Source of the DNA: a virus
Taxonomy: Duplodnaviria > Heunggongvirae > Uroviricota > Caudoviricetes
Reading direction: 5' to 3' (one strand)
DNA: 42,003 nucleotides
IMG/VR virus record: IMGVR_UViG_2671180896_000003
Span: 1 to 42,003 of that record
Position 1 is the stretch's first letter. Each line of letters starts with the position of its first letter. This document shows, in pieces, positions 2,830 to 34,758 of this stretch. The notes under the pieces were generated by a model that was given only the letters and a program-made list of their open reading frames with translations, was not told the origin of the DNA and did not search any database. A program made the translations under genes and the position numbers.

Positions 2830-3509
2830 TAAAGTAATCTCCCCCATGCGCCGTCATCAAAACCGGCGATGTATTCGTTATCCATGTCAAATCCAAAGAA
2901 TTTTGTTCCTTCGGACGGTGTTTCGACTGAGGGTGTTTCAACGCCGCCAGCCCATACACCAGCAGCTTTAACGGTGAGATAACCCTGTTTGATAGCGGCT
3001 ATCAGTTCGAGTGACACATCAGAAATATCAGTCTCGGGAAAAACCCAGACCGATATCGTCATGTCCTGGTTATCGACGATCTGCATCTTCAGTCCAGAGC
3101 CTGCGGTAGCAGCGTCAAGGATGGGAGGCAGAGAGTCGTTCCGACCATCCCAGTTGTTGATAGCGATTTTCGCTTTCAGAATGATGCGGTACGTCTCATC
3201 ACTCAGCGTCGTATAGCCAGAATCAGGATCATATGGCCCTTGCCAGATGCCCTGGTCATATCCGAGCCCGTCAGTGTCCCAGCTGAAATAAACGCCGCTA
3301 ATTGGCTGGCTGACTATACGACTACGCCCAATCCACAGGCCGAGGATATCGAGTTGCACGCCAACCGCCGTATCGATATCGAAGGCTGTTACAAGCCCTG
3401 ACATAGTGCTGGACACATCAATCAGCGGGCGGGTGCTCAGATCTATATGGTCAAAAAAGAGTGGCTTGGTAGCATGGTAGTTAGTGATCAGTTCGGTGTA
3501 TTTGCTCAT
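2829..3509 (-). CDS. Phage tail protein (YmfQ/DUF2313-like, gpI position)
   Basis: Protein from MSKYTELITNYHATKPLFFDH...; ATG at 3507-3509 overlaps stop of upstream J-like gene (ATGA); position between baseplate J and tail fibre. Confidence 0.55.
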   Translation of the reverse strand: MSKYTELITNYHATKPLFFDHIDLSTRPLIDVSSTMSGLVTAFDIDTAVGVQLDILGLWIGRSRIVSQPISGVYFSWDTDGLGYDQGIWQGPYDPDSGYTTLSDETYRIILKAKIAINNWDGRNDSLPPILDAATAGSGLKMQIVDNQDMTISVWVFPETDISDVSLELIAAIKQGYLTVKAAGVWAGGVETPSVETPSEGTKFFGFDMDNEYIAGFDDGAWGRLL

Positions 3510-4705
3510 GAGGTCACCGTGATAGTGACGTGACTCGCAACGCATGACGCAGATTCGTCATAAGCAATATCGATATTTCCGCTTGCGACTGAGTCAGAGG
3601 ATTTGCCGATGAGCAGCTCCTGAATGTCGTAATAGCGAGCACTGCCTCCGCTTACCACGCCAAGGTTTGCCGGGGAATAAATACGACTCAGCAGAACGTC
3701 ATCGCCAATTGCCAGGCCATTTATATAATCGGCAACAGCCTGTTTTATCTGCTCGCCGATTTGAGATGTATACCCGGTAAAAACTTTCAGGGTAATGGCT
3801 ACAAAAATTGGCACATCGGTAGAACGCGAAAAACTGATGACGTGAGGATTACCGTAAGTATCCGGCACGGTGACAGAAGTTGTACCGTAAGTTGCGGTTC
3901 CCTGCCCTTTATTCCCCCTGATGGTCTGGGCGATTTCAGTCAGATCGCCGCCATCCACGATGGCAGAGATAGAGTGTGGCGGCAGCCCATTACTGTCGGT
4001 CGTGCCGGTATCATTCTCGTAGAGCTTGTGACGTGTAACCCCTGCAACGTTCACTATCGCGCCGTCCACCCCTTCAAACGGCGTGATGGAGGGTAGCGCG
4101 ACACTCTGCCCCTGCCGGATGCGCAGCTCTGCGTCGGTTTCCGCCGGGGATCCGACGGTGGCCGCCGCGGGGTTAGTTACCGAAGTCCAGCCGCGGGTCG
4201 GTGTGTTAATGGTCGTGACCGTTCCGGACAGCGCGGCCACTGCGCCGCTATTTGAGCAGGTGGCAGTGACCGTCGCCGTCCCGTCTAAACCAATTACCAC
4301 GGAAGCCGGCATGCTCCAGACCAGGCCATTCTTATCCCTGACGGAGCCATTCGAAATGGTCGTACCGGCCGCGCCGGTAAGCAGCAAATCAACCGTTGAG
4401 TTGGTAGCCGTTCTCCTTTTAATACCGTTTATTTTCACGTTCTTGCTCAGCCCTGCGCCATAAGCGGTGGCAGGCGAAAAGCTGTTGTAAACAGCAATGG
4501 CCGTGTTGTTAGCATCGTGAATAGCCAGGGCCACCAGCGCCACCATCTGCCCGTCTTTGCTGTCAGGATCCAGATAAGCATCGCTGCCATATATCTGCTT
4601 AAAGTAGTTGGTCAGGGTGTCCAGTATTGTCTGGTAATCAGGCGCGCTGATCCCCTCAGCGGTTACCGTTGCCGATAAGCCGAGCGTGTCCAAATTGAGG
4701 GCCAT
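3506..4705 (-). CDS. Baseplate J-like protein
   Basis: 399 aa; position and size match baseplate J/Mu gp47 family; directly follows gpW-like gene. Confidence 0.65.
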   Translation of the reverse strand: MALNLDTLGLSATVTAEGISAPDYQTILDTLTNYFKQIYGSDAYLDPDSKDGQMVALVALAIHDANNTAIAVYNSFSPATAYGAGLSKNVKINGIKRRTATNSTVDLLLTGAAGTTISNGSVRDKNGLVWSMPASVVIGLDGTATVTATCSNSGAVAALSGTVTTINTPTRGWTSVTNPAAATVGSPAETDAELRIRQGQSVALPSITPFEGVDGAIVNVAGVTRHKLYENDTGTTDSNGLPPHSISAIVDGGDLTEIAQTIRGNKGQGTATYGTTSVTVPDTYGNPHVISFSRSTDVPIFVAITLKVFTGYTSQIGEQIKQAVADYINGLAIGDDVLLSRIYSPANLGVVSGGSARYYDIQELLIGKSSDSVASGNIDIAYDESASCVASHVTITVTS

Positions 4706-5059
4706 TTATGCCTCGCTGGTAAGGGTGGTTTGTCCGTAGATAGTGTTTATGGTGGCTGTGAACGTTACCCGGCGTGTCGTGCTTTCATTCACGGTATCAA
4801 AGGCCAGTATGGACAGAACGCCAGGTGTGGTGCTGATGCGATCCCTGATCGCAAGGTTATAAACCTCAGGCCTTTGCTTTCCCAGAACCGACTGGATATA
4901 GGGTGTGCCCTCGGTTGTGTCCAGAAACCATTGCCCCTTCCACAGTTCAAAGCGCGTTTTAACGGCCTGGGCCACGCACTCGGGTGAGTTGACCAGAAAG
5001 GTGTCATCGCCCTGGCCGAAGGTGTAGTCCCCGTCGTCGTCTTCGCGTCGGTATCGCAT
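4706..5059 (-). CDS. Baseplate wedge protein (gpW / GP46-like)
   Basis: 117 aa small acidic protein between spike and J-like genes, the typical gpW/gp25 position. Confidence 0.5.
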   Translation of the reverse strand: MRYRREDDDGDYTFGQGDDTFLVNSPECVAQAVKTRFELWKGQWFLDTTEGTPYIQSVLGKQRPEVYNLAIRDRISTTPGVLSILAFDTVNESTTRRVTFTATINTIYGQTTLTSEA

Positions 5060-5061
5060 AA

Positions 5062-5715
5062 TTACCCTCCCAGTGGTTTCGTATTGCTGCCGCCGACTTC
5101 CACGCCGCCATGCGTATGCTTATCAACCATGGAGCCATCCACCAGCTGCAGGCGGCCGTCAGGCAGAATTTTCAGACCGTTAAGGTTGAAGCCTCCCGGC
5201 GCGGTTCCCGTTATCGCTCCGGATGAAGGGTTAAGGCTCAGTTTTGTTCCACCGTCGTCACTGCGCAGTTCAACCGCACTGGTACTGATGCTGCTGATTT
5301 TCTGCGCCTGCGACTGCGGACCCACAATGGCAAACGCATCACTCAGGTCATGCTGGCGCGGGTCAACCGGTTCCTGCACCCCGCCGCTCTGCCACCAGAA
5401 GTCGATGCAGCGATCGGAGAAGACCAGGAGGCACTCGTCACCGGCCTTTACCGGGAAGGTTAACGTGCAGCCACCGCCGCGGGGGAACACCACTGGAACG
5501 TCTGGCAAAATCGGTATCTCCTCAGAAACCAGAGCGCCATCGTCGCTGAGCCGCTGACCGTAGATGGCTGGCTGCACGGTGCATGTCACTGTTTCAGGGT
5601 CAAAGGACTGGATGATCCCCGGCAAAGCCACGCGCAGGCTGCCGAAAATGGCGTGGCGGTGCGCCTCAAGAGTCTGCGATTCGTTGCCGTCCTGCGCGCG
5701 GGCTGATACTGGCAT
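5062..5715 (-). CDS. Baseplate assembly protein V / central spike
   Basis: Protein from MPVSARAQDGNES...; ATG 5713-5715 with GGAGAAA upstream; Gly-rich C-terminus typical of gpV/Mu gp45-like spikes. ORF track start at 5763 would overlap a terminator. Confidence 0.6.
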   Translation of the reverse strand: MPVSARAQDGNESQTLEAHRHAIFGSLRVALPGIIQSFDPETVTCTVQPAIYGQRLSDDGALVSEEIPILPDVPVVFPRGGGCTLTFPVKAGDECLLVFSDRCIDFWWQSGGVQEPVDPRQHDLSDAFAIVGPQSQAQKISSISTSAVELRSDDGGTKLSLNPSSGAITGTAPGGFNLNGLKILPDGRLQLVDGSMVDKHTHGGVEVGGSNTKPLGG

Positions 5716-5731
5716 AGCTTTCTCCAGGTAA

Positions 5732-5755
5732 TAAAAAACCCGCCGAGGCGGGTTA
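5732..5755 (-). terminator. Intrinsic terminator (minus orientation) just upstream of spike gene
   Basis: AACCCGC-CGAGG-GCGGGTT hairpin followed on the minus strand by TTTTTT. Confidence 0.6.
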
Positions 5756-5933
5756 CTGATCAAATGTCAGGATTTGAGGGTGAGTTAATGCGTGCTATTT
5801 ATCTTCATTGCAGCTCTTAATATAGGTTTTGCTTAGAACCACGGTAACGTCGTGATTTGTAGCAAGATACAGGCTGCTAAGGAAAAGCCGGTAGGCAATT
5901 TTTAGCTTCTCTCGATAGGGGCCTGAAACCTTT

Positions 5934-6284
5934 ATGCCAAAATCAGAAACAACCATAAAATTTACTCCAGCTATTTGGAAAGAGTTACTTCCTGTAATCC
6001 AGGATAACATACCCGCTAATGACTATGTAGTAAGTAAAAGAGTCAGAACGGGTGATTCTCCTGGCGCTATTGGCACAATTCTCGAAATATCTATTACCGT
6101 TATCACATCATCACCAGCTTGTATCGCCATTGCATCGATAGCGAGAAAATGGTTACAGACCAGATCATCAAAAAAAATAACGGTAACCACTGAAAAAGGT
6201 ACGATCGAAATACAAAATCTGACATCAAAGGAGCTTTCAGAAGTACTGGAGCAGTACAAAATTATAAGTTTTAAAGACGAGTAA
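5934..6284 (+). CDS. Hypothetical protein (moron candidate, antisense to late operon)
   Basis: 116-aa ORF followed immediately by a plus-strand terminator; weak RBS; one hydrophobic segment (ITVITSSPACIAIASIA). Coding status uncertain. Confidence 0.35.
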   Translation: MPKSETTIKFTPAIWKELLPVIQDNIPANDYVVSKRVRTGDSPGAIGTILEISITVITSSPACIAIASIARKWLQTRSSKKITVTTEKGTIEIQNLTSKELSEVLEQYKIISFKDE

Positions 6285-6288
6285 CTGA

Positions 6289-6314
6289 GCGCCGGTAGTT
6301 CCGGCGCCTTTATT
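6289..6314 (+). terminator. Intrinsic terminator (plus orientation)
   Basis: GCGCCGG-TAGTT-CCGGCGC hairpin followed by CTTTATT. Confidence 0.55.
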
Positions 6315-6317
6315 AAA

Positions 6318-6674
6318 TCACTTAGCCTTCACGCAGTCGTAAGTTCCAAACACTCGAGGTTCATTCATGTTCATTCTGATGGCCTCGGCATTGAGTATCC
6401 CTCTCCCATTGCGTTTTATATAATCAAGACCATAGCGCTGCCCAGAATTCTCATTCATGACAATCCATTGCATTTTAATATTGTCATAATCTCCCTCTTT
6501 TTTGAGGAATGTCACCTTCTGACTATCAGGCTTTGCTCCGTTTATCCTCGGATATCCGTCGTTGCTTGATGAGGTTGAGAAAGTAAAGGGACCACACTTC
6601 ATATAAGCGGTGTTTGCCGCTGTAGAAGAAAAGCTGACGAATGCTAAAGAAACCAAAAAAAGTATTTTTTTCAT
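6318..6674 (-). CDS. Secreted/periplasmic protein with signal peptide (moron inside tail operon)
   Basis: 118 aa; N-terminal signal peptide MKKILFLVSLAFVSFSSTAA; two Cys; start overlaps stop of baseplate hub gene (ATGA), so translationally coupled. Confidence 0.6.
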   Translation of the reverse strand: MKKILFLVSLAFVSFSSTAANTAYMKCGPFTFSTSSSNDGYPRINGAKPDSQKVTFLKKEGDYDNIKMQWIVMNENSGQRYGLDYIKRNGRGILNAEAIRMNMNEPRVFGTYDCVKAK

Positions 6675-7741
6675 TGTGGAGCCGTTCGCTGTAGGGCCGT
6701 ATTCGATTGTAAATCACGCGCCCCTCTGGCCATACACATGAGATCCATATACCACGGATTCCCTCTCGTATCGCCGGTGTAGCTGATTGACTGAACTATG
6801 TAAACGCCATCAGTTGCCACACTGGCGGGCTGCGCAAGCGTCGCGCTGCCTGTACTAAGATTACCATTATCATTTGCCTCAGTAATCCTTGCCTGTGATC
6901 TTTGGATCTCATCGTTCGGTAATTGCGAGCGATACACCGAGTCCTGGTTCAACTGAATAAGCCCGTTAACCCGAATGTTTGGATTAATGAGACAGCGCAC
7001 ATTAACGCCTGCCCCCATGGTTTGCTGAGGCATACCGACCAGGCCAGTTTTGGTGTTAAGCACGATCGCTTCATGGAGATATTTATTCTCAGGCACCATT
7101 TGCAGCTGGCCGTCGACAAATTGCCAGTTAGCCTCGCACTGCGCCGCTAGGTTGCTCATGTAGTCGCGCGTTGCGCCGAAGAAGACGCGACCGCGTGGCA
7201 TCACCCTGTCAGGGAACTGCCCGGTGATGCCCTGGGTGATGCCGTAAGGCGAAAAGTCCTTCATCAGAAGTGTATGCACGTCGGCAAGCTTATATCCTGC
7301 CGCCAGGCTGCCGGACGATACGGCTTCGTTGAACGCCTTATGACCATCTACCGACTGAATTAGCGTAAAAATATCGGTAGGATTATCGCGCCCGGTTATC
7401 GTAAAACGAATCTCCCCATCAAAAATGACTCCGTAATTTTGCCCGCGCGTCTGGCCGGTTTGCTCAGATGAAATCTCGGTAACCTGCCCAACCTCGCTTT
7501 CAGTAACCGTCGGCGCCAGGCCGTTATAACCGGCTATGATGGTAATGCGAGAAAACTCATCCCCCGTAATCCGGGTGATTGTGTCACGCTTGAGGTTGTA
7601 AATTTTAAGCGTCGCCACACGTGGCCACATCGAGTTAAACCAGTCGATTGCGAAGGTAACTTTAAAGTCCGACAGGGATATGCCATTCCCCTTGTCGTTC
7701 AGAAGCCGCAGTTCAAAATGGCGATTCCAGTTAATAGTCAT
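6671..7741 (-). CDS. Baseplate hub protein (gpD / Mu gp44-like)
   Basis: 356 aa; position after tape measure and two small tail proteins matches gpD/Mu P family. Confidence 0.5.
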   Translation of the reverse strand: MTINWNRHFELRLLNDKGNGISLSDFKVTFAIDWFNSMWPRVATLKIYNLKRDTITRITGDEFSRITIIAGYNGLAPTVTESEVGQVTEISSEQTGQTRGQNYGVIFDGEIRFTITGRDNPTDIFTLIQSVDGHKAFNEAVSSGSLAAGYKLADVHTLLMKDFSPYGITQGITGQFPDRVMPRGRVFFGATRDYMSNLAAQCEANWQFVDGQLQMVPENKYLHEAIVLNTKTGLVGMPQQTMGAGVNVRCLINPNIRVNGLIQLNQDSVYRSQLPNDEIQRSQARITEANDNGNLSTGSATLAQPASVATDGVYIVQSISYTGDTRGNPWYMDLMCMARGARDLQSNTALQRTAPQ

Positions 7742-7744
7742 GGG

Positions 7745-8050
7745 CTATTCCTGAACAAAATAAAGATGGCTCGAGGCACCAAGGTTTGTTTTCGTCGGGT
7801 ATTCAGGGGCTCCGTTGTCTGTCATGACCACCAGTGCGCCAGATATCCCCAGATCCGGATACTGAGCCAAAAGGTTAACCCCCGGCACCAGGGGGACGCC
7901 CATTAACAGAGGCTGCGCGCCGCTATCCATAACGTCCATTATCCAGCCAGCATCGTCGCGCCATAGCACGCGGAGCGTGTAGCTTATGTCGCCCAGGGTG
8001 ATGCGAAACTCCTGGTTATCAGGGATCATCGGAATCTCATTAACGCTCAT
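7745..8050 (-). CDS. Phage tail protein, hypothetical (small)
   Basis: 101 aa; tightly packed between tail genes, start overlaps upstream stop. Confidence 0.45.
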   Translation of the reverse strand: MSVNEIPMIPDNQEFRITLGDISYTLRVLWRDDAGWIMDVMDSGAQPLLMGVPLVPGVNLLAQYPDLGISGALVVMTDNGAPEYPTKTNLGASSHLYFVQE

Positions 8051-8625
8051 TATCCCCTCGCAAAATCGGCTATCTTTTGAATTACAGATGAGCTGCTGGT
8101 CGGCACCAGAGATTTCATCCCTGTATTCTGTACTGGCGCGGTGCTGACTCCCTCCTGCATGTTGGCCTTATCCGTAACAGTGATGCTCTGCGTATCCGAC
8201 ATGATCACTTCCCGCAGCGTCAGAACGCATGACAGCACATTTTCGCTGGTTCGGTCCGTCGTGGCCTCGATAGCGCGTATCAGCATATTGCTGTAGGTGC
8301 GCTTGCCGGTAACAACATCAAACGGCACCCGGGATTTCTGCAGATCCAGCAACTGCTGATAAATCTCCCTTGGGCTCTCGCCAACCCGCAAGCCTATGCT
8401 GGACAGATTTACCAGGTCGAGTACCGACCCGCCGCCGGCAAACCCGCACTCCATAGTGACCTCGCTGGCGCGCTTATAGGCGTGGTCGTTTATGGCGGCG
8501 CCAAACTCCACCGGATGTTCAGTGATTTCCAGGGCATCAACATGCTTCTCCGACACCACCACGTCAGGTACAAAAATACCTATTTTCCGAGACTGCAGCC
8601 GGAAGATGACCGATAAAATATCCAT
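8050..8625 (-). CDS. Phage tail protein, hypothetical (follows tape measure)
   Basis: 191 aa; start overlaps tape-measure stop; position of DNA-circulation/gpU-like proteins. Confidence 0.45.
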   Translation of the reverse strand: MDILSVIFRLQSRKIGIFVPDVVVSEKHVDALEITEHPVEFGAAINDHAYKRASEVTMECGFAGGGSVLDLVNLSSIGLRVGESPREIYQQLLDLQKSRVPFDVVTGKRTYSNMLIRAIEATTDRTSENVLSCVLTLREVIMSDTQSITVTDKANMQEGVSTAPVQNTGMKSLVPTSSSSVIQKIADFARG

Positions 8626-10604
8626 CAGTAGACCCTCGGTTGTAGCTGCTGAGTAAGACGGGAATTAACGCCGGATTGACGATCGGCAACCTCCCGGCCA
8701 GTGGATGCCGGGTCGCTCGCGCCGTAAATATTGATGTTCGTTTCCTGGCTGATCTGCGCGGCTGCCTGCGTAGCGGCAACGCTGGCCAATGGGGAATTCC
8801 ACTGACCGTAACCTTCCTTCCTGGACATGGCCTGCAGAAGGTTGCTGAACTGCTGCGGGTCGCTCAGGTTCAGCGTGTCCTTAGCGCCCACGCCCATCAT
8901 ATTGGCTACGAAGTTCGAATAGGCCTCGGGGTCGTTGTTGTCGCTGGCAGGTGCGTATTTGTGGATGATGTCCCATATTGACTGGAGTTTTTCATACCCG
9001 GCGGCCGCGCTTTTTCCGGTGAAATAAAGACGGATCTGCCTGGCCATTGCCATCCAACCATCAAGCGGCGTCTGATGAGAGGTAAAACCGGTGCCGCCGA
9101 CGGGGCGCAGGTTGCCAGGATTGTTGTTACGGTCGGCCAGCGTCTTGCCCGGGCCGCTCTCCTGCTGGTCTGAGCCGCCCTCTTCTTTGCCGAAAATCCA
9201 CCCGTTTATTGTTTTCCCGATGCTTCGCGGGTCGAACCCCGTCTTGCCCTCTATCCAGTCAGCAGTATTGTTAGCGCTGTCAGATACTGCAGGTAGAGCA
9301 TCCTGGCCTTGCCCTTGTGCCAGCAGGTTCTTGCCGATCGCATAAGCATCTTTCCAACGCCCCTCGTTGATGGCGTTTATCAGGTCGCCAATCATCTTAA
9401 TCATCTTGCCAAACTCACCGAACTGCTTAGTGAGGTTGTCGATGTCGCCTTTAAGGGTCCAGTTTTTGAGGTTGATATTGAGCAGCTTTGCGATTTCAAC
9501 CCCTATCGCCTTCACAGAATCCCGCAGCTCGCCAAGCGATTTCAGGGCAGCCTCTATTTCTGGCTCCCATTTATCCCAGGGCAGCAGGCTTTGACCGCCT
9601 TCTTTCCAGGTTTTGTAGTCGTCGTAAAGCGCGAACAGCGCCGAGCCTAGCGCGATTACGATACCTATCGGCGATTTGAGGAACTCAGCGTTAAGCAGCT
9701 GCCACGCCGAAACCAGCCCGGACACCAGCATGATTAGCTGCTGTATATCCGGCGGCAGCTTTTTAAACCACTCAATCAGGCCGCCTACCGCCTGCGAGAC
9801 GCGCCACGCCATCTGGGTAATGACATCAGCAGCAAAGAGCACCCCCTTCACTATCTTCGTGACCACGCCCTCTATCTTCGGCCAGTTCTCCAGCATCTGC
9901 TTGCTGAGATTGTTCAGCGTGCCGCTCAGGCCGCCGGCCAGATTCGAGCCAACCTTATCGCGCAAGATCCCCAGTAGCGAAACGAAGTTGCGCATTGAGG
10001 TCATGAACTTGTTGGACTGCTGCGCGGCCCTGTCAGCATCGAAGCCTGTCTTCTGCATCATCGACTGGTATTCAGCCGTGAAGCCGGACATTCCTCGCCG
10101 CATTGCCATCAGCGTGTTTTCGTCAATGCCCAGCATCTGCGCGAACTGATTGGCTCGATAATAGGGCATGCTGCTGAGGCGCTGGCCGACGCCGGTGAAG
10201 ATAGCCGACATGTCGCGCATCTGTCCGGAAGCGTCCCGGGTCTGCACCCCCAGGCGGTTCAGGAAGCCTTCGGCGCCGGGATTGCTGCGCATGAAGCGCG
10301 CCAGGCTCTCCAGTGAGTTCTGGGCAGCCTCGGCGCTGGAGCCGGTTTGTGAGGCAGCATAGCCAAGCGCCTTGATGCCGTTGACCGATGCCCCGGTGCG
10401 TTCCGCGGCCCAGTAGAGTTTATCAAGGCCGCTGGCGATCGAGGCGGTGAAGCCCACAATGGCCAGCCCCGTCGACTCAACTATGGCCCCCAGTTTTACG
10501 ACGTTCGCGGCCACACCTTTGAGCGTGGCTTCAAACTTCGCCTGGCCCGCGCCGTCGATATCGAACCCCAGAGAGACCAGGTAATCACGGATAGTATCAG
10601 CCAT
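8625..10604 (-). CDS. Tail tape measure protein
   Basis: 659 aa, Ala/Gly/Gln-rich with predicted helical repeats and hydrophobic central segments; preceded by chaperone gene with frameshift extension. Confidence 0.75.
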   Translation of the reverse strand: MADTIRDYLVSLGFDIDGAGQAKFEATLKGVAANVVKLGAIVESTGLAIVGFTASIASGLDKLYWAAERTGASVNGIKALGYAASQTGSSAEAAQNSLESLARFMRSNPGAEGFLNRLGVQTRDASGQMRDMSAIFTGVGQRLSSMPYYRANQFAQMLGIDENTLMAMRRGMSGFTAEYQSMMQKTGFDADRAAQQSNKFMTSMRNFVSLLGILRDKVGSNLAGGLSGTLNNLSKQMLENWPKIEGVVTKIVKGVLFAADVITQMAWRVSQAVGGLIEWFKKLPPDIQQLIMLVSGLVSAWQLLNAEFLKSPIGIVIALGSALFALYDDYKTWKEGGQSLLPWDKWEPEIEAALKSLGELRDSVKAIGVEIAKLLNINLKNWTLKGDIDNLTKQFGEFGKMIKMIGDLINAINEGRWKDAYAIGKNLLAQGQGQDALPAVSDSANNTADWIEGKTGFDPRSIGKTINGWIFGKEEGGSDQQESGPGKTLADRNNNPGNLRPVGGTGFTSHQTPLDGWMAMARQIRLYFTGKSAAAGYEKLQSIWDIIHKYAPASDNNDPEAYSNFVANMMGVGAKDTLNLSDPQQFSNLLQAMSRKEGYGQWNSPLASVAATQAAAQISQETNINIYGASDPASTGREVADRQSGVNSRLTQQLQPRVY

Positions 10605-27937: not shown

Positions 27938-28054
27938 ATTTATGTTCTCCCTTCGAGCGACTAACAGACGCGATTAAAGATTGTCGGCAGCAGCATCAGA
28001 GGGTTACGCAAATTGCGGTATTCTGAAAAATGCGCGCCAGCCTTAAGCGCAATT

Positions 28055-28288
28055 CTAATAAAACCAGTCGTCAGCGCTTTCCCAGGTATCCTGGAGGATT
28101 GATTCAATTTTCTTTTTATCGTCCTTGTCACCACCAAAAACACTTAACCCATCGGCCCCGGCACGGCGGATTGTGAGCCTGCAATTGTCATAGTGATCAT
28201 TCAGGCGCTTAAGCAGTTCTTTCTCCAGTGCTGGTACTGCGCCTTTAGGAAGTTCTTTCATGCGATCAATGGTTAATTCAACTTTCAT
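28055..28288 (-). CDS. dinI: DinI-like protein
   Basis: From MKVELTIDRMKELPKGAVPALEKELLKRL...ESILQDTWESADDWFY; matches recalled E. coli DinI pattern including C-terminal ETWESADDWF. Confidence 0.85.
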   Translation of the reverse strand: MKVELTIDRMKELPKGAVPALEKELLKRLNDHYDNCRLTIRRAGADGLSVFGGDKDDKKKIESILQDTWESADDWFY

Positions 28289-28306
28289 AATGGCCCCCAT
28301 TGCATG

Positions 28307-28326
28307 TACTGTGTTTTTATACAGTA
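28307..28326 (-). promoter_or_regulatory. LexA operator (SOS box) in dinI-like promoter
   Basis: TACTGTGTTTTTATACAGTA: CTGT-N8-ACAG, 19 bp upstream of the dinI-like ATG; candidate -35 TTGATC and -10 TATACT overlap it on the minus strand. Confidence 0.8.
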
Positions 28327-28388
28327 TACCTATGCGCGGAAATGATCAACGTTTTAAGAACACAAATTGTTAATTTTCTGTCAGTAGT

Positions 28389-28416
28389 AAAAAAAGAAAA
28401 CCCGCCGTAGCGGGTT
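28389..28416 (-). terminator. Intrinsic terminator (minus orientation) between accessory island and dinI-like unit
   Basis: AACCCGC-CGTA-GCGGGTT hairpin followed on minus strand by TTTTCTTTTTT. Confidence 0.6.
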
Positions 28417-28779
28417 GAATTAGCAGTGTTATATTAAGCGGCAATTTCTTTCTGCCGGCACAATCCCGAGAGATTCGCCCTCTGTATCGCATCATCAATG
28501 AGCACCTGTATGACCATGAGGCAAAGCGTTATCCAACTTGCATTCATCTTTTTCAATCAGCAAAGGAGTGGTTAGTGCTGTGAGTGGGCTTTGTTCACTT
28601 CATGGTAGATAAATCAGCTATGGATAAGTGATAAGAGGTGAAATCAATCCGAATTAACAACCTGAAGCACATTAATCGGAACACAGATATTAAAATCCTA
28701 AAGTCTAGTAACAAATAGCCGATATGAGATATTGCTTATCAGTTTAAAAATAATCTATTGAAAAAATGGGGGGGAGGCG

Positions 28780-29343
28780 TTGAAGCGAGTAGAGCGCGAT
28801 TTTATCTGTCTGTTTAATTGTGTGTGGTATCAAGATTTCCCTGTGTTCAAAGGTGAATATATCAACCGTTCCAACTGGACCATTCATGTTGGCCTGGTCA
28901 TGCGCGAGTGTGCAAAGTTAATGGGCGCAAGAACATTTTTTGAACAAGGCGGGCGTACCGATGCGGTCCTACAATATCCAGACAATCAAATTTTAACCTA
29001 TGTTGAGTGGGAGTATAATCAGGCAGACAGAGATAGCGTTAACGAGTTAGACAAACTGCTTGAAAAAAACGACAAGTGCTATTTCTCCACATTCATCTCA
29101 TATTGTCAGCATGAAAACATCAATATTGTTATTGAAAAAGCAAGTAGAATATGGAGTGAAGCAAGCAGGCCTTTGATTTTTTTTCTTATCACCTATGAGC
29201 CTCAAACGAAAAAACGCCGCCATTTTTTAGAACTCAGAACTTATTTTTTCTCAAACGGCAAAAGAAAACTAGTTCGCAAACAACCTGCGCTTCCATGGGA
29301 TATTGAGCAACGAAAATACAATGTCGAAGAAGATGCAGGATAG
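28780..29343 (+). CDS. Hypothetical protein, 187 aa, AT-rich accessory cargo (defence-like candidate)
   Basis: TTG start with GGGGGGAGG RBS; AT-rich codon usage unlike flanking phage genes; about 350 bp non-coding upstream; no family recognised. Contains YPD...YVEWEY segment that might be a degenerate nuclease motif (speculative). Confidence 0.6.
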   Translation: MKRVERDFICLFNCVWYQDFPVFKGEYINRSNWTIHVGLVMRECAKLMGARTFFEQGGRTDAVLQYPDNQILTYVEWEYNQADRDSVNELDKLLEKNDKCYFSTFISYCQHENINIVIEKASRIWSEASRPLIFFLITYEPQTKKRRHFLELRTYFFSNGKRKLVRKQPALPWDIEQRKYNVEEDAG

Positions 29344-29382
29344 AAGAGACATAAGGTTTTCACGACAGTCTCGTTTCGAGCC

Positions 29383-29764
29383 CTAACTAAAATATTCTGT
29401 TCGGAGCAACCAAATAGCTCTGGCTTTGCTGTGACCATGTTCGCGGTACCAACGCCTCTCTAGGTCCGCTTCTCGCTCATGGTGGACCAAAATCAAATCT
29501 AAAATGACGTGGCTAAGCGGGAGTACATAGTGAATGACAGGATGCTCCGGGCAGCACCATACTAATTCAGTTCCCGTCAGAGGTAGGCGTTGCTTCATGA
29601 TGGGATGAGCGCTCCCTCCAGACAATCCATGCGACAGCCGCCTCCCATGATATATATCCATTACCGCCATTTTTCGCTCTGCGGAGATTAACTGCATCAC
29701 CAAACCTTTCAATGATGAATTTTTCAAATTCTATGCGTTTTTCTTCGTCGATTGTTGAATCCAT
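29383..29764 (-). pseudogene. Two overlapping minus-strand ORFs in different frames (65 aa and 114 aa); possible frameshifted gene
   Basis: ORF 29567-29764 (MDSTIDEEKRIEFEKF..., RBS GGGGAAGG) and ORF 29383-29727 overlap by 161 nt in frames offset by one; together they would give about 120 aa. Confidence 0.35.
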
Positions 29765-29981
29765 ACCTTCCCCAGAAGAGTCCTACGAATCGCTCTTATT
29801 GCATAAAAAATAGCATATACAATAGAGAGTGAAAAACCGACGTAGCGGGTTAACTTTATGTTACTCATGAGTCTTGTCTCGCTGCGACTTAAAAGCGGAA
29901 CATTCTCGCGCAAGTTGCGTTGCTAAAGCTACGGGGTTGAATGGCTCTCCATGCCCATTTAAGAAGGCATGCGGTGTGTAG

Positions 29982-30010
29982 TTGAACGTTATTTAAAACA
30001 CAGATAGAAT
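29982..30010 (+). promoter_or_regulatory. Sigma70-type promoter for secreted-protein gene
   Basis: TTGAAC (29982-29987), 17-bp spacer, TAGAAT (30005-30010); about 35 bp upstream of ATG at 30044. Confidence 0.55.
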
Positions 30011-30043
30011 CAAGAAAAATCCTAAATAAATGGAATATTGTTT

Positions 30044-30424
30044 ATGGCTAAGAAAATCGCATTACTGGGCTTTTCTGCTCTTTTTGTTGCAAGTGTTGCT
30101 TTTGCTGAAACGACAAGTAACTGGGTTGAGGTTACTACAGCTGATGATGGCATTTTTTCAGCAAAAAAAGGCACATTTAGAAATGTAAAAGGTGATTCAT
30201 CTGCCTTGTTCATGTATCAAACAAAAAATAAAAAAGTAGAGTACTACAAAGTTAGTATTAAAGATGCCGACTGTGATAGTGGATATGGGGAGATAAGATT
30301 CTTCTATATGGATGGGAAATTAGCTTTCAAAGGTGATTATGTTGCTGATGGGAACAGTGTTGGCGCAGGTATTGGTGATTTTATGTGTGGGGTCAGAATT
30401 GGACTTAACACACAAAAAAGTTAA
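30044..30424 (+). CDS. Secreted/periplasmic protein (lysogenic-conversion candidate)
   Basis: From MAKKIALLGFSALFVASVAFA|ETT: signal peptide with AFA cleavage motif; mature about 105 aa with two Cys; own promoter. Confidence 0.7.
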   Translation: MAKKIALLGFSALFVASVAFAETTSNWVEVTTADDGIFSAKKGTFRNVKGDSSALFMYQTKNKKVEYYKVSIKDADCDSGYGEIRFFYMDGKLAFKGDYVADGNSVGAGIGDFMCGVRIGLNTQKS

Positions 30425-30464
30425 ATGAGGGGCATTTGTTAAAAAACAATAGCCCCACATTAGA

Positions 30465-30666
30465 TCAATATTGGCTCCGGCATTTCTGGATAAAAGCTTC
30501 TATGCTACGGCGCTCATAGCGAACAATCTTAGCGCTGAACTTTACACGGGGCCAATGTAGACCGGTGTCGGTGTTCTGTATTCCATTTACATAATGTTTT
30601 TTGCGTAATTCCCAGCTTCTGGCATACCTCGCCCGGAGTGAGGAGATCATCAGGTTGCTCAGTCAT
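30465..30666 (-). pseudogene. AlpA/Xis-family HTH regulator, frameshifted
   Basis: ATG 30664-30666 (RBS GAGG): MTEQPDDLLTPGEVCQKLGITQKTLCKW then premature stop; frame shifted by one continues with HWPRVKFSAKIVRYERRSIEAFIQK, the usual AlpA C-terminal pattern. Confidence 0.6.
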
Positions 30667-30838
30667 GTTATGCCTCGCTGTTATCTGGGGTGATGATTAG
30701 CAGCTTCCAGATGGCTGAGACATACATAGCCTGATGTTTCGCATCGACTAGGGCATTATGCATGTCACCTTCAAACGGCATGTCCCGAGTTCTCCCTTTT
30801 CGCCGCTTTCGCGTCGCATATTCTCCAAACGGTATTTA

Positions 30839-31396
30839 TCAATCATTACTGTTATCCTCGCAGTAGTAGTGCCGTCCCTCTGGGTCAGTAGATACATGTC
30901 CGCAGATATCGCATTCAATTCCAGGAAGCACCGATTCTGACTGCGCTTTGATATGCAGTCGCGGTTCACCGTCTTTCGGCTCTGGCCACTGGCGGTTTTT
31001 GTTAACCGCCAGCTTTTCTACCATCGCCAGGGTAATCTGCTTATCACTGATACCGGCACGACGTTGCGCATCCCATAACAGGAATTGCATGTCAGCCCAT
31101 TCGCTCATCTCGTCTGGTTCCGCAGCAGCCTCGATAGCTTCTTTGGAAAGGTGCTTCAGCGGACCAACTGGACCGACATCGCCGAATGTTTCATCTGACC
31201 ATGCTGCATGTTCACAGCGTACCTGCTCACGGGCTATCGACTCCAGAACCCCATCAATCACCTTCACTGCATCAGCCATTGCGTAGCCGAGATTACCGCC
31301 GTCGCTTTGTGCTGCTGCTTTGCTGAGTATTTCGCGTACCTGGTGCAAGCGATCAAGTGATACAGGACCGTGCGCCGGGTGGTTGTTAGTTGTCAT
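30839..31396 (-). CDS. Hypothetical early protein (possibly DUF550-like)
   Basis: 185 aa; C-terminal Cys/His cluster (CDICGH...YYCED); family recollection weak. Confidence 0.45.
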   Translation of the reverse strand: MTTNNHPAHGPVSLDRLHQVREILSKAAAQSDGGNLGYAMADAVKVIDGVLESIAREQVRCEHAAWSDETFGDVGPVGPLKHLSKEAIEAAAEPDEMSEWADMQFLLWDAQRRAGISDKQITLAMVEKLAVNKNRQWPEPKDGEPRLHIKAQSESVLPGIECDICGHVSTDPEGRHYYCEDNSND

Positions 31397-31399
31397 GGG

Positions 31400-31600
31400 T
31401 TAGTCCTCTACCTTGTTTCCGCAATGCGGGCAGTAATTGAACTTATGGGCGAATCCAGGATGCGGAACGGCAAAGCGTTTGGTTTTCTCGTTCCAGTCAG
31501 CAATTACGATTTCAAAATTTACGACCGCATTAGCCCAGTCACTGGAAAGAACTGGCTGCGACCCAATCAGGCCGACTATACAGCGATTACATTTTTCCAC
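31400..31600 (-). CDS. Small zinc-ribbon-like protein
   Basis: 66 aa with CxxC...CxxC (CNRC...CPHC). Confidence 0.5.
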   Translation of the reverse strand: MEKCNRCIVGLIGSQPVLSSDWANAVVNFEIVIADWNEKTKRFAVPHPGFAHKFNYCPHCGNKVED

Positions 31601-31604
31601 TGAC

Positions 31605-31799
31605 TCACCCCCCCTTCACGCCAATGCCAGCAGTAAATCGCGACGGTGACCAATCGCAATATGTGTTCGACTCCGTGTGTCCAAAAATTGCTTTACAACG
31701 ATGGATATGGTGGCAATTACCACATGTTATGCCAGCCGGTAATCGCATCTTGTCGGGATCGGCTGGGTCATAATTCAACGCCAGTTTTTCGGTTGTCAT
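31605..31799 (-). CDS. Small Cys/His-rich protein
   Basis: 64 aa with CGNCHHIHRC...C; start overlaps upstream stop. Confidence 0.5.
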   Translation of the reverse strand: MTTEKLALNYDPADPDKMRLPAGITCGNCHHIHRCKAIFGHTESNTYCDWSPSRFTAGIGVKGG

Positions 31800-32134
31800 G
31801 CTGGCATCCTCCCCACGATATCTATAACCCGACGCATAACCGCACTTCCCCGAAAATCTGCTGGTAACTCAATCAGAGGCTTACTCGAACCGTATGAGAA
31901 TCGTTGGAGATCGAAATCAATTACAGCCTTTGGGTCCCTGAACAAATCTAGACGACCGTAACGAATGAGTTCGCCGCGTTCGGCTGCTACGCGGAAATAC
32001 TTCTCAGCAGTCTGACGATGCAGCGACAACATCTGTGATGCCTCGCTAACGGTTAAGCGTCCACGGATTTTCACCTCTTCGATGATCACCCGGATAAGTG
32101 CCGCCTGCTCTTCTGGTGTATTTGGTCTTGGCAT
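31796..32134 (-). CDS. Hypothetical protein following replication initiator (HTH-like segment)
   Basis: 112 aa; segment TVSEASQMLSLHRQTAEKYF resembles an HTH; too short and unlike a lambda P or DnaC-type loader. Confidence 0.45.
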   Translation of the reverse strand: MPRPNTPEEQAALIRVIIEEVKIRGRLTVSEASQMLSLHRQTAEKYFRVAAERGELIRYGRLDLFRDPKAVIDFDLQRFSYGSSKPLIELPADFRGSAVMRRVIDIVGRMPA

Positions 32135-32136
32135 GC

Positions 32137-33048
32137 TTACCCCCTGAATCCGGGTGGGATTGTTTTGTCTGGCTCAGAAATGCGGTTCACATCCCTGCCC
32201 GTTTTGCGAGCGTTGAGAGCGAACTTCGGTTTAAACAGTCCCTGGTACCCGTTGGCGATACTGGTGTTGATCACATCAACGGGGTCATGCCCAGCGTCCA
32301 GGCAAGCCTTGAGCAACTTGAATGCTTTGGTGACCGTCATTTCGGTCTTGATGGCTTTGCCAGACTGTTGGCGGTAGGCCACCCACTCACTCCAGGACAC
32401 AGAATCAAGCCACTCAGGAACGGGAATCGTCAGCGGGTCAAACTTACCCTTCCCCTTTGGGGGATTAGAGGGGGTTAGATCTGTATTTATATTTGTATTT
32501 GGAAGAATGTCTTTGGTGTTCCCTGTTTTCAGGGATACCTCTCCCTGTTTTTGGGGATGGTTATCCCCGTTTTCAGGGATGATTGAAGGGGTAAAATTGC
32601 TATCCCTGAATTCAGGGATGGTAATAACCCATGTGACAACTTCAGCAGCAGGAAACACCGCTGGACACTTCATGCAATTTGGCTTGGTATACGCCCATTT
32701 ATCCAGGCTGGTATTAATCCCTATGTATCTGGTTTGCCCAATGCGGCGCAGGATGATGATGTTCCGATAGGCAAGGCTCAACACGGCTTCAGAGACGTGT
32801 TTCACCTTCAGCGTCGTTTTATCTGCAATGAGGCTATTGGCGATGCGGTCAGAACTCTTAGACCAGCCATAGGTCAGACGAACGATAGCATTCAGCACCC
32901 GGAACTCGCGCCCGGATAGTTCGACGATACACAGGGCATCCTGAATCTGGTTGGCCAGGCGCAAATAGCCTTTCTCCAGTTCAGCCATGCTGCTCTCCTG
33001 TTTCCCCTGCTGTGTGGGGAATTTGAATATTTCAGCGGTATTTGACAT
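32137..33048 (-). CDS. Replication initiation protein, lambda O-like N-terminal domain
   Basis: From MSNTAEIFKFP...: GYLRLANQIQDAL...REFRVLNAIVRLTYGW...DRIANSLIA parallels recalled lambda O N-terminus; ori iterons lie inside the gene; C-terminal domain unlike lambda O. Confidence 0.8.
   Translation of the reverse strand: MSNTAEIFKFPTQQGKQESSMAELEKGYLRLANQIQDALCIVELSGREFRVLNAIVRLTYGWSKSSDRIANSLIADKTTLKVKHVSEAVLSLAYRNIIILRRIGQTRYIGINTSLDKWAYTKPNCMKCPAVFPAAEVVTWVITIPEFRDSNFTPSIIPENGDNHPQKQGEVSLKTGNTKDILPNTNINTDLTPSNPPKGKGKFDPLTIPVPEWLDSVSWSEWVAYRQQSGKAIKTEMTVTKAFKLLKACLDAGHDPVDVINTSIANGYQGLFKPKFALNARKTGRDVNRISEPDKTIPPGFRG
32520..32618. repeat. Replication origin iterons (four about 16-bp dyad repeats) inside the O-like gene
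   Basis: TCCCTGTTTTCAGGGA (32520), TCCCTGTTTTTGGGGA (32542), TCCCCGTTTTCAGGGA (32564), TCCCTGAATTCAGGGA (32603); 22-bp spacing for the first three; AT-rich stretch at 32480-32510 on the O-downstream side, as in lambda ori. Confidence 0.75.
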
Positions 33049-33132
33049 ACTGTTCTCCGCAATTACGCACAGTTTTTGCACCTGAAAGCCGTTGGTGTTC
33101 GAGCACCGCGGCTTTCGCCATTTCTGAGCCCG

Positions 33133-33690
33133 TCATAGCGCACCACCCAGCATCGTTGTAACCATCGCCATAATGGGCGCCACAGAATCAGGTCCGTCCA
33201 GGTAGAGCTTGGCTACGATGCTCTCGCTGATTTCCTTCATCCGTTCGTGTCTGGGGGCTTTGAGGACGACAGCCTGTATCGCCTCAGCGTCTTCTTTCAC
33301 CGACCTGGCGACACGAACCGCAAAGCAGTCGTGCTTAATCACGCGATCCCGGTACGCCAGCGGCAGAACCGAAATTATTACCGGCGCCAGCTGCTCGACG
33401 TTCGCCCGGTAGGCCGGTGATTTCTCGTGGTTGTCCAGCCAGCGAAACAGCTTCACGTTCCACACATCGGCGCTGCCGGTCATGTCAATGCTGTCAAGCT
33501 CGGCCTGTTCGGCAGCCTCTTTAATCGCCAGAGCGACCGCCACGCGGCCCTCTGCCGCCGCCCAGGCGCGGACGGCAGAACAGATAGCCCGGTGATCGAC
33601 CGGCTGGCCTTCAGCCTCACTGTGTTGATACTGGAATTTCAGGTGCTCTGATGGCGCTCTGTTATTCTGTTGAAAAGAAAGTGTTTGCAT
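33133..33690 (-). CDS. Hypothetical early protein in cII/YdaT position
   Basis: 185 aa immediately downstream of cro-like gene; weak resemblance to YdaT-like proteins from memory. Confidence 0.4.
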   Translation of the reverse strand: MQTLSFQQNNRAPSEHLKFQYQHSEAEGQPVDHRAICSAVRAWAAAEGRVAVALAIKEAAEQAELDSIDMTGSADVWNVKLFRWLDNHEKSPAYRANVEQLAPVIISVLPLAYRDRVIKHDCFAVRVARSVKEDAEAIQAVVLKAPRHERMKEISESIVAKLYLDGPDSVAPIMAMVTTMLGGAL

Positions 33691-33701
33691 TGTCAGTGCT
33701 C

Positions 33702-33920
33702 CTACTTTGGTAATCCGTCAGTGGGATTTGGATAGAGATCAGGGCGCAGCTCGTGGGGGGTTACGCCTGTCATTTTGAAAATCGGGAAGATATAGCTTGG
33801 CGGGACGATCCCTTGGTCACGATTCTTCCAATGACTTACAGACATACTCGTCACACCAAGCGCGATGCTGAGCTTTCTGGCAGAGCCAGCGGCTTTAATT
33901 GCTTTATCGAGTGCGGACAT
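33702..33920 (-). CDS. Cro-like HTH regulator (YdaS/Cro family)
   Basis: 72 aa; HTH segment ARKLSIALGVTSMSVSHWKNR; divergent from repressor gene; RBS AGGAG 7 nt upstream of ATG. Confidence 0.65.
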   Translation of the reverse strand: MSALDKAIKAAGSARKLSIALGVTSMSVSHWKNRDQGIVPPSYIFPIFKMTGVTPHELRPDLYPNPTDGLPK

Positions 33921-34022
33921 GTGCTTCTCCTGCTTATTGATAGCAGAAGTAAACCACAGATTTATACTTCATGCAAACTTTGGATTTATTGCGTGCATAA
34001 ACCAAATATTTACAATGACCAT
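33921..34022. promoter_or_regulatory. Immunity-region divergent promoter/operator interval
   Basis: Two related about 18-bp sites TAAACCACAGATTTATAC (33950) and TAAACCAAATATTTACAA (33998) with partial dyad symmetry; PRM-like -35 TTGCGT / -10 TACAAT ending 6 nt before the cI-like ATG (possible leaderless mRNA). Confidence 0.5.
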
Positions 34023-34412
34023 ATGAGAAAAGAAGAACCCAACCTCGTTCTGGTGGAGCGCCTTACTGAGATCACTGATCGCGGCGTTACCAAAGCAGAC
34101 ATGGCAAGAATAGCTGGAGTCACCCCTCAGGCCGTAAACGGCTGGTTCAAAAAAGGCGTGATTAGTAAGAAATCGGCACTGGCCATAGCCGACGCTGTTG
34201 GTATTTCTGTCGCCTGGCTACTCGGTGAAGACGTTGGGGAGAAAGACGGTCTCAAACCGGACGAACAGCGTTTGCTCGAGCTCTACCGCCAGTTACCGGA
34301 AGAAGAGCAGCAGAACATGCTCCGCATTTTTGCGCTTCGCCTGAAAGAGTTAGATGAGCTGTACGAGAAGTACATGAAGGGTCGGATTCGATCGCAAGGT
34401 GAGCAAACCTAA
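34023..34412 (+). CDS. cI-like repressor, short form (XRE-family HTH, no LexA-type peptidase domain)
   Basis: 129 aa from MRKEEPNLVLVERLTEITDRGVTKADMARIAGVTPQAVNGWFKKG...; divergent from cro-like gene. ORF track upstream extension to 33753 crosses the operator region and is unlikely. Confidence 0.7.
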   Translation: MRKEEPNLVLVERLTEITDRGVTKADMARIAGVTPQAVNGWFKKGVISKKSALAIADAVGISVAWLLGEDVGEKDGLKPDEQRLLELYRQLPEEEQQNMLRIFALRLKELDELYEKYMKGRIRSQGEQT

Positions 34413-34476
34413 ACCAGTAGTATCTAATTCCATGTAATAAAAATATTTCAAGATTTAATATCTTCTGGAGGATTCG

Positions 34477-34758
34477 GTGTCTAAAGAAACAACCGTCGAA
34501 CTTATGCATCTTAATGATGTAATCGAAGCGAAAAATTTCATCGAGACCAATGCTGACGGTGTCGTAACAATCGGCACACAAAATGCCGGTTACGAAGTTT
34601 ACAATTTTGTGTTCCTGAATAGCAGCCCGATCATCGGTACGGATAATGCGGATATAGTCGTCAAGGGCATGCAGCGAACCAAAGTTGTGTCTGTGACTTT
34701 AAGCAAACAAAAGGCTTATGATTTTTATCAATCCTTAAAAAGTATGTTTGAGGAATAA
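34477..34758 (+). CDS. Hypothetical protein, gene 1 of repressor-linked cassette
   Basis: 93 aa; GTG start with GGAGG 5 nt upstream; same strand as and 64 bp downstream of the repressor gene; no family recognised. Confidence 0.6.
   Translation: MSKETTVELMHLNDVIEAKNFIETNADGVVTIGTQNAGYEVYNFVFLNSSPIIGTDNADIVVKGMQRTKVVSVTLSKQKAYDFYQSLKSMFEE

Follow-up and report, generated by a model that had tools for sequence, protein, structure and literature searches.

In a prophage that fills the whole of the 42,003-nucleotide stretch of DNA analyzed here (IMG/VR record IMGVR_UViG_2671180896_000003, positions 1 to 42,003; hereafter, the window), the minus-strand baseplate operon is interrupted by a gap of 959 bp between the hub and spike genes, and this gap contains three small genes (Table 1). 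One encodes a 118-amino acid (aa) protein with a signal peptide; the other two, which encode a 116-aa protein assigned by its sequence to the EACC1 family and a 53-aa partner, constitute a self-contained two-gene cassette of ~580 bp (~5729-6310) with a terminator at each end. The reading that we favor overall, with slightly better than even confidence, is that of a cargo slot that holds an envelope-acting exported protein together with a self-contained suicide/defense cassette. EACC1 was described in 2020 and characterized in 2025, both times as one half of an effector-protease pair; the clade found in enterobacterial prophages has lost the protease and has gained a strictly linked 53-aa partner, which raises the question of how a pore-former gated by proteolysis is licensed in the absence of an encoded protease.

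A first-pass annotation of this DNA had proposed the gap in the operon, an ATGA overlap between the hub gene and the gene for a signal-peptide protein, a 116-aa open reading frame (ORF) on the opposite strand and one terminator on each strand. All of these are present where it placed them, with the hub stop codon and the start codon of the translationally coupled 118-aa gene sharing the ATGA at 6674-6671. Both ORFs of that inventory are real, but the 53-aa gene had been missed, and it is to this third gene that the minus-strand terminator belongs. As the start codon of the spike gene, a TTG upstream of this terminator (TTG 5763) was rejected because the gene would then read through the terminator; the RefSeq start is ATG 5715, which has a GGAG Shine-Dalgarno motif. 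The GC content is 0.385-0.445 over 5700-6699 and 0.50-0.64 in the flanks. All three ORFs of the gap are under purifying selection. Across six loci, the variable columns at codon positions 1/2/3 numbered 37/21/85 in the 116-aa ORF and 11/5/30 in the 53-aa ORF, and the pairwise ratios of nonsynonymous to synonymous substitution rates (dN/dS) were 0.12-0.17 and 0.07-0.16, respectively; the possibility that these two ORFs are spurious was rejected on this pattern and these ratios. Additionally, the 170 nt upstream of the 116-aa ORF are conserved at the level of coding sequence. RefSeq contains the 53-aa gene in some genomes (WP_016243572.1) but not in those identical to the window, and the present analysis adds a real gene that several genome annotations omit.

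The 116-aa protein matches Pfam PF19953 (EACC1) with 29.1 bits (gathering score, 23.6; E 1.1e-6), and 13 of its 22 aligned relatives (alignment A5) also match this family, the best of them at E 3.9e-9. The layout is EACC1-like, with a beta-alpha-beta module at the N-terminus (residues 1-38), a linker with a conserved T39-x-D41, and C-terminal beta strands. A hydrophobic small-residue segment, SSPACIAIASIA, occupies residues 59-70; its core is invariant in close relatives and persists as a small-residue patch in distant ones. Linker residue D41, in a T-x-D-S context, likewise shows no variation among close relatives, and most relatives retain it, down to ~25% identity. The AlphaFold2 model of the protein is ordered as beta-alpha-beta, loop, and beta-helix-beta-beta-alpha-beta, and its confidence is lowest in the loop that contains D41. 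These features support membership of the 116-aa protein in the EACC1 family.

EACC1 is the constant 5' gene of a two-gene conflict system in which the 3' gene encodes a caspase-like peptidase fused to sensor domains (Kaur et al. 2020, PMC7159879), and the EACC1 protein is characterized by a conserved transmembrane (TM)-like helix with a small-residue patch and by short alpha+beta extensions on both sides (PMC7159879). The EACC1 of Ktedonobacter is an autoinhibited monomer that is cut by the partner protease at Asp49; only the C-terminal fragment is toxic and permeabilizes liposomes, and the N-terminal fragment pairs with the C-terminal strands (Evans et al. 2025, bioRxiv 10.1101/2025.11.14.688446). 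The protein of the window resembles these proteins as a standalone PF19953 protein in the range of ~116-125 aa with a central small-residue hydrophobic segment, an N-terminal alpha+beta module and a conserved linker Asp, which is the cut site Asp49 in Ktedonobacter and Asp41, in a predicted linker, here. The genomic context, however, is different. The described systems lie in defense loci of actinobacteria, cyanobacteria and multicellular bacteria, whereas the present gene lies in the tail operon of an Enterobacterales prophage; and instead of a cysteine protease gene, none of which is adjacent or annotated in the prophage, it has a 53-aa head-to-head partner. No mention of prophage-borne or protease-less copies is made in either of these two descriptions of EACC1 (PMC7159879; bioRxiv 10.1101/2025.11.14.688446).

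On the 3' side, the EACC1-like gene is followed by its own terminator and then by the convergent 118-aa gene, with no caspase-like protease gene adjacent. A protease neighbor was likewise found neither at the ~45 loci whose copies were checked for flanking tail genes nor beside the one copy outside a tail operon (locus L041), and the annotation of the prophage contains no protease partner, with the possible exception of a DUF2213 gene in the head block. Since no protease gene is present, membership in the two-gene EACC1-protease system is not supported. A 467-aa hypothetical gene beside the repressor gene of COL60J was considered as a candidate protease and discarded, as it has no Pfam, PADLOC or PDB match and does not occur in the window.

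The linkage between the EACC1-like gene and its small partner is strict. The 53-aa ORF was present in all 13 loci that were tested and have an intact EACC1-like ORF, and a partner ORF of ~52-55 aa overlaps the EACC1 start head-to-head in every case examined, including those of EACC1 relatives with only 28-37% identity. In the window, the genes are divergently oriented and share their first 23 nt on opposite strands; owing to this head-to-head overlap, the 5' ends of the two mRNAs would be mutually antisense. The 53-aa protein has 14 homologues, and the partner proteins align gap-free over their first ~50 residues, save for a one-residue N-terminal gap in the two most distant. A ribbon-helix-helix (RHH) repressor or antitoxin was considered as the identity of the 53-aa protein and was rejected on the lack of a significant profile match, being kept only as a lead: the best PDB match, to the RHH N-terminus of PutA, is in register over residues 1-23 only and is not significant (E 0.25), and hhalign returned a probability of 0.5% against an RHH alignment in which four of the six sequences had been entered by hand.

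The divergent, overlapping arrangement of the two genes and the minus-strand terminator after the 53-aa gene mark the cassette as self-contained, and comparison of its homologues indicates that it moves as a unit, independently of its neighbors. A word-based homology search returned only nine close relatives of the EACC1-like protein, and an exhaustive profile search of 1.84 billion representatives returned 24 clusters, nearly all of 112-127 aa. Scans of IMG/VR identified 29 distinct viral loci with EACC1 relatives (28-100% identity), in all but one of which the EACC1 gene has the same location and orientation, on the opposite strand and flanked by the spike gene and the hub-coupled gene. The exception is L041, in which the EACC1 and 53-aa pair resides among antirepressor-like early genes, outside the tail operon; because the same pair is kept there, the pair constitutes an autonomous unit. 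Furthermore, in E. coli prophages with flanking tail genes that lack a match at this level, the cassette DNA is 80% identical, and between the window and Citrobacter locus L012 the identity is 90% for the EACC1 protein and 96% for the 53-aa protein but only 44% for the 118-aa protein. The cassette is rare: it occurs in 13 of 5426 E. coli genomes and in none of 50,697 deposited phage records, and it is not present in the phages SEN34, Mulock and ST11-OXA48phi15.1. A scan of the genome collection with the EACC1 alignment returned a single locus.

By homology with the Ktedonobacter protein, the 116-aa protein would be an autoinhibited monomer; a cut in the linker at conserved Asp41 would free the C-terminal ~75 residues, which would assemble into oligomeric membrane pores and cause cell death. 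Bacterial gasdermin-protease modules provide an analogy, in that an autoinhibited pore-former is licensed by one proteolytic cut and leads to suicide, although the fold and family are unrelated and the gasdermin protease is encoded next door. As an adjacent caspase-like protease gene is absent here, activation would need to occur in trans, through a protease of the infecting phage or of the host, or else the 53-aa partner would gate the toxin as a repressor or antidote. The late transcript, presumably antiterminated by the Q-like protein, would run antisense through the EACC1 gene and may silence it during the phage's own lytic growth; since this transcript is antisense to the whole gene, the lytic programme of the prophage should oppose EACC1 expression. 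We consider it most likely that the cassette is a prophage-carried abortive-infection/defense module, with an addiction module as the main rival. The analysis itself establishes the gene structure, selection, assignment to a family by sequence, lack of a protease gene, strict pairing, mobility and conserved slot; export, pores, trigger, antisense silencing and a part in defense are deductions from these.

In that rival explanation, which we hold to be a minority possibility of some weight, the EACC1-like and 53-aa proteins are a toxin-antidote pair that stabilizes the prophage or the cassette and does not act against phages: the 53-aa protein or the antisense 5' mRNA ends would silence the pore-former, and the cell would die once the cassette was lost or no longer expressed. 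Such a pair would be in keeping with two small, strictly linked genes whose overlapping divergent 5' ends are kept across deep divergence, with a terminator-insulated unit that moves between prophages and genome positions, and with the absence of the protease partner. However, purifying selection has preserved the prodomain and the linker Asp, which argues against a simple constitutive toxin, for which neither would be needed, and suggests that proteolytic licensing is still used; moreover, the 53-aa protein matches no antitoxin family, and the order and orientation of the genes are unlike those of classical type II operons.

If the cassette is indeed a defense module, its trigger might be supplied by the invader. 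We speculate, while regarding this as improbable, that the protease-less EACC1 pro-toxin serves as a bait for a protease that a superinfecting phage brings in or induces, such as a head-maturation protease, with Asp41 as the cut site, and that the 53-aa partner and antisense late transcription keep EACC1 silent during the prophage's own growth. An essential enzyme of competitors would then become the trigger of host suicide, and the prophage would possess, in a dedicated slot of its tail operon, a defense that works without a sensor-protease. A trigger of this kind, an invading-phage protease, would represent a new sensing logic for abortive infection.

The pore could also serve the phage itself, with the EACC1-like protein acting as an accessory holin-like pore for lysis or release that is activated late, for example by the prohead protease. 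The head block of the prophage encodes a DUF2213 protein, of a family that includes prohead proteases. EACC1 fragments do form membrane pores (bioRxiv 10.1101/2025.11.14.688446). Nevertheless, the gene is antisense to the late operon and should be opposed by late transcription, genes for a holin, a lysozyme and an Rz1-like spanin are already present in the prophage, and most relatives with the same tail lack the cassette, as the counts given above illustrate; we therefore rate a role in lysis as very unlikely. The Rz-like DUF2570 gene is present as a pseudogene in COL60J and lacks annotation in NCTC11023.

The 118-aa protein belongs to phrog_3443, a PHROG family with no assigned function, and has 46 homologues in Enterobacterales, all of which have a variable, hydrophobic N-terminus of the signal-peptide type; Cys27 and Cys114 are among the invariant residues. 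AlphaFold2 predicted, with a predicted local distance difference test (pLDDT) score of 87.7, a confident small all-beta barrel that begins after the signal peptide. The signal peptide, the invariant Cys pair and this model together fit a periplasmic, non-virion protein. The first-pass annotation had called the protein periplasmic on account of a signal peptide; prediction returned a typical signal peptide, and the Cys pair and barrel accord with that location, whereas the exclusion or host-modifying role that had been attached to the protein is retained here in conditional form.

Among the relatives (SEN34, Mulock, and Klebsiella, Citrobacter and E. coli prophages), the gene after the hub encodes a homologue of the 118-aa protein in 18 of 19 annotated loci and in the majority of those from IMG/VR, and the 4-nt overlap is usually kept. 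Where this family is missing after the hub, a lipoprotein of 230-242 aa with an LASC or LTGC lipobox occupies the site (L017 2739-3431; L040 5431-6159), or a different signal-peptide protein of 158 aa or more replaces it (L050 5443-5988; L052 5448-5924); in L024 (5389-6279), a fusion joins a lipoprotein to a C-terminal 118-like domain. In this tail lineage, the site directly behind the hub is thus reserved for some exported protein. The 118-aa gene, given its distribution, is not a recent insertion, and it looks to be a lineage-conserved late gene. The gene is accessory and non-structural, since its product is exported and replaceable. That at least one of the three genes encodes a structural or assembly component of the baseplate is, in our view, scarcely credible: their location between hub and spike and the conservation and hub coupling of the 118-aa gene would suit such a component, but a signal peptide and an invariant Cys pair are found in the 118-aa protein, in whose place some tails have unrelated exported proteins, and most related tails lack the EACC1 cassette, one copy of which lies outside a tail operon. 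The SEN34 paper (PMC5261728) contains no virion proteomics.

We propose that the 118-aa protein is exported as a small disulfide-bonded beta-barrel, made together with the hub by translational coupling, and acts in the envelope, where its most likely role would be protection of the infected or lysogenic cell, by preventing related phages from entering or in some other way. Regular occupation of the position by an exported protein, together with the coupling to a tail gene, is the pattern anticipated for proteins whose envelope action is tied to phage entry, such as T5 Llp, Cor and HK97 gp15 (PMC3594210), to which the 118-aa protein is likened by analogy only. T5 Llp, phi80/N15 Cor and lambda Lom/Bor are likewise signal-peptide proteins or lipoproteins encoded among tail genes that act in the envelope, and here, too, the product of the slot after the hub is always an exported protein; those proteins, however, are expressed early or in lysogeny, whereas the 118-aa gene is coupled to a late structural gene and its product has no sequence or fold match to them. 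HK97 gp15, which brings about superinfection exclusion at DNA entry (PMC3594210), belongs to a moron (Cumby et al. 2012; PMC3594210) that resembles the present region as non-structural DNA of a tail operon with deviant GC content, a terminator and small envelope-directed proteins. There is no sequence relationship between the two, the HK97 site is the chaperone/tape-measure junction and not the hub/spike junction, and gp15 is a prophage-expressed inner-membrane protein, whereas the 118-aa gene is conserved in its lineage and is not an obvious addition.

A further alternative, to which we give little credence, is that the 118-aa protein is a lysogenic-conversion or host-fitness factor (in serum resistance, adhesion or envelope stress, as for lambda Bor and Lom) unrelated to exclusion. 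A small exported barrel inside tail genes recalls lom in lambda (by analogy; PMC3594210), and the low GC content and the lack of a match to known exclusion proteins would be compatible with such a factor. Hub coupling in most relatives and the failure to find a promoter of its own nevertheless point to late, not lysogenic, expression, and the constant occupation of this position by an exported protein in the tail lineage is suggestive of a role linked to the tail or to infection.

In related tail modules, the interval from the exported-protein gene to the spike gene is empty or filled with very different genes. The cargo is a TM protein in Mulock gp21 and SEN34 gp21, a 61-aa gene together with a 188-aa HExxH protein in ST11-OXA48phi15.1, an opposite-strand DUF4236 gene in E. 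coli ST361, a pair of 243 and 142 aa in E. coli Sx181, and, in Klebsiella, the EACC1 cassette, alone or accompanied by a KilA-N gene; E. coli GZ2408P also differs in its slot cargo. The GC content of the cargo is 0.39-0.49, compared with 0.51-0.53 for the loci, and in Klebsiella L013 each extra cargo gene has its own terminator. The hub-spike junction of SEN34-like tails is most likely a cargo hotspot of a known general type, and it represents a compact hunting ground for exclusion and defense genes in prophages of E. coli, Klebsiella, Citrobacter and Salmonella.

Morons have been defined as DNA that is extra relative to related phages, with deviant GC content, its own terminator, and its own promoter with expression from the repressed prophage (Juhala/Hendrix, PMC3594210). 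The EACC1 and 53-aa cassette is extra DNA of deviant GC content with its own terminators, one per direction. The 118-aa gene is not extra DNA, being present in nearly all relatives, and as regards the promoter, no sigma-70 consensus match was found in a useful position at the tool's threshold or at a relaxed one. Thus, the description of the region as a moron island in the first-pass annotation holds for the cassette, a mobile unit, but not for the 118-aa gene, which is conserved in the lineage and without a recognizable promoter; comparison with related tails separated the two in the same way, as the cassette is absent from most of them and the 118-aa homologue is nearly universal. Its wider view of the region as insulated, non-structural cargo is borne out by the terminators on both sides and by the variation of the cargo among related tail modules.

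Two side observations concern other cargo of the slot. The 188-aa protein of ST11-OXA48phi15.1 (L005 5544-6110) contains an HEAGH (HExxH) motif, which suggests that it may be a metallopeptidase; it has no Pfam match and matches only phrog_36675. A pair of 243/244-aa and 128/142-aa proteins, the smaller of which has an HEPN-like RAYYGMYH motif, occurs both in the Sx181 slot (L018 4281-5440) and in L041 (2500-3620), where it lies ~1.2 kb from the non-tail EACC1 cassette; it matches only PHROG families with no assigned function. This pair in L018 and L041 suggests a shared pool of mobile cargo modules.

Several results weigh against the favored interpretation of the slot as carrying an envelope-acting protein and a suicide/defense cassette. 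The PF19953 match of the 116-aa protein is modest (29 bits) and covers residues 37-106 only, its AlphaFold2 model has a pLDDT of 67 and is indicative only, and a fold search with this model was uninformative. The protease, the defining partner of EACC1 systems, is missing, and the activation step is accordingly speculation. For the 53-aa protein, family and fold searches gave no significant match (none in Pfam at E <= 1), PADLOC (2023) has no defense model for the 118-, 116- or 53-aa protein, and the 118-aa protein has no sequence or fold match to known exclusion or envelope proteins (HK97 gp15, Llp, Cor, Lom/Bor) or to lysozyme inhibitors (MliC/PliC). None of the three genes has a convincing sigma-70-like promoter, even at a relaxed threshold with a conservation check; because no promoter was recognized, expression in the lysogen is no more than putative, and the 118-aa gene has the appearance of a late gene. 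Finally, the EACC1-like gene contains an A8 homopolymer at which NCTC11023 (L020 ~6161-6175) has one A fewer and an IMG/VR prophage (L037 ~5228-5243) one A more, both changes truncating the protein at ~81 aa. These two independent frameshifts may reflect recurrent slippage or a gene that is dispensable or counter-selected, or they may be homopolymer sequencing errors. Strain ES7 is also one base short somewhere in this stretch.

Table 1. Genes, terminators and sequence elements in and around the hub-spike gap of the window.
Feature	Position	Strand	Remarks
Tape measure	8625-10604	minus	first in transcription order around the gap
Dit-like protein	8050-8625	minus	after tape measure
Plug	7745-8050	minus	after Dit-like protein
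Baseplate hub, 356 aa	6671-7741	minus	upstream flank; Pfam E217_GP41, 26.7 bits, just below the 27-bit cut-off; NCBIfam NF047561, E 8.5e-52
118-aa exported protein	6318-6674	minus	signal peptide MKKILFLVSLAFVSFSSTAA; mature part ~98 aa, predicted 8-strand beta-barrel
Intrinsic terminator of EACC1-like gene	6289-6307	plus	7-bp all-GC stem; dG -15.1 kcal/mol, z -3.7 versus shuffles
116-aa EACC1-family protein, predicted pro-toxin	5934-6284	plus	Pfam PF19953; RefSeq name EACC1
A8 homopolymer	6169-6176	plus	codons K80, K81, inside EACC1-like gene; frameshift site in some copies
53-aa gene	5795-5956	minus	MVVSDFGIKVSGPYREKLKIAYRLFLSSLYLATNHDVTVVLSKTYIKSCNEDK; GGAG motif 8 nt upstream of ATG; not in the first-pass list
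Invariant non-coding motif, 19 nt	5755-5773	minus	ATCCTGAYATTTGATCAGT; immediately upstream of minus-strand terminator
Intrinsic terminator of 53-aa gene unit	5729-5754 (hairpin 5754-5737 + U-run)	minus	just before spike; AACCCGC-CUCG-GCGGGUU; dG -13.7 kcal/mol, z -3.2
Baseplate spike, 217 aa	5062-5715	minus	downstream flank; Pfam PF18352 N-terminal domain, E 1.8e-43; RefSeq start
Sheath initiator	4706-5059	minus	after spike
Baseplate J	3506-4705	minus	after sheath initiator

The two terminators that delimit the cassette are strong, stable hairpins and are positionally conserved in homologous loci, although the number of terminator-like matches in the region (two found, 3.7 expected from shuffles) shows no excess over chance. 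The plus-strand terminator acts in one direction only, since the minus strand lacks a U-run, and its stem has a compensatory change from C-G to T-A in L008/L009. The minus-strand terminator lies 22 nt upstream of the spike ATG, and its stem, AACCCGCC...GGCGGGTT, is also found before the spike in SEN34 (L006 5276-5295) and in Klebsiella L013. The adjoining motif ATCCTGAYATTTGATCAGT holds a GATC site and a CTGA-N7-TCAG inverted repeat. The exact 15-mer TGATCAGTARCCCGC, which spans motif and terminator stem, is present in 45 of 53 loci, including cassette types whose EACC1 and 53-aa proteins are only 17-37% identical to those of the window; the motif with the stem is missing from cassette-free tails and from the non-tail copy L041. 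No covariation was seen for the motif in the alignment, and an Rfam scan of 5500-6900 matched no RNA family. The motif could be a recombination boundary, an operator or an RNA element of the 3' untranslated region.

The operon that hosts the slot is a late (baseplate) operon, and the phage is a temperate myophage of the SEN34-like type. The whole window corresponds to a complete, lambdoid-regulated prophage with a contractile tail, located in E. coli next to yciI, with the integrase at the far end beside kch. The late genes are all on the minus strand, preceded on that strand by a gene for a Q-like antiterminator. This tail module is shared with Salmonella phage SEN34 (Brunovirus), Klebsiella phage Mulock, and numerous prophages of Klebsiella, Citrobacter and E. 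coli. Over 5000-7800, the window is 99.9-100% identical to 4 of 5426 complete E. coli genomes, and NCTC11023 is collinear with it over its entire length.

Other parts of the prophage vary among its relatives. No SLT domain match was found in the tape measure of the window, whose sole Pfam match is a weak one to PhageMin_Tail; its counterparts in L002, L003 and L013 are annotated as lytic transglycosylases or contain PF01464, and the C-terminal domain of the tape measure is thus variable across the lineage. At ~393-2830, an invertase-type recombinase gene lies beside oppositely oriented genes for tail-fibre tips and for tail-fibre assembly proteins (annotation of the collinear NCTC11023), and this region is probably an invertible host-range segment. 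The early regions (~28000-35500) differ among the four genomes with the 99.9-100% tail match, with the window following NCTC11023, and COL60J (L007 31000-37000) has a different replication/immunity segment that includes the 467-aa gene (phrog_5990) adjoining the repressor. As these early regions are not common to all four, the prophage is mosaic even among near-identical tails.

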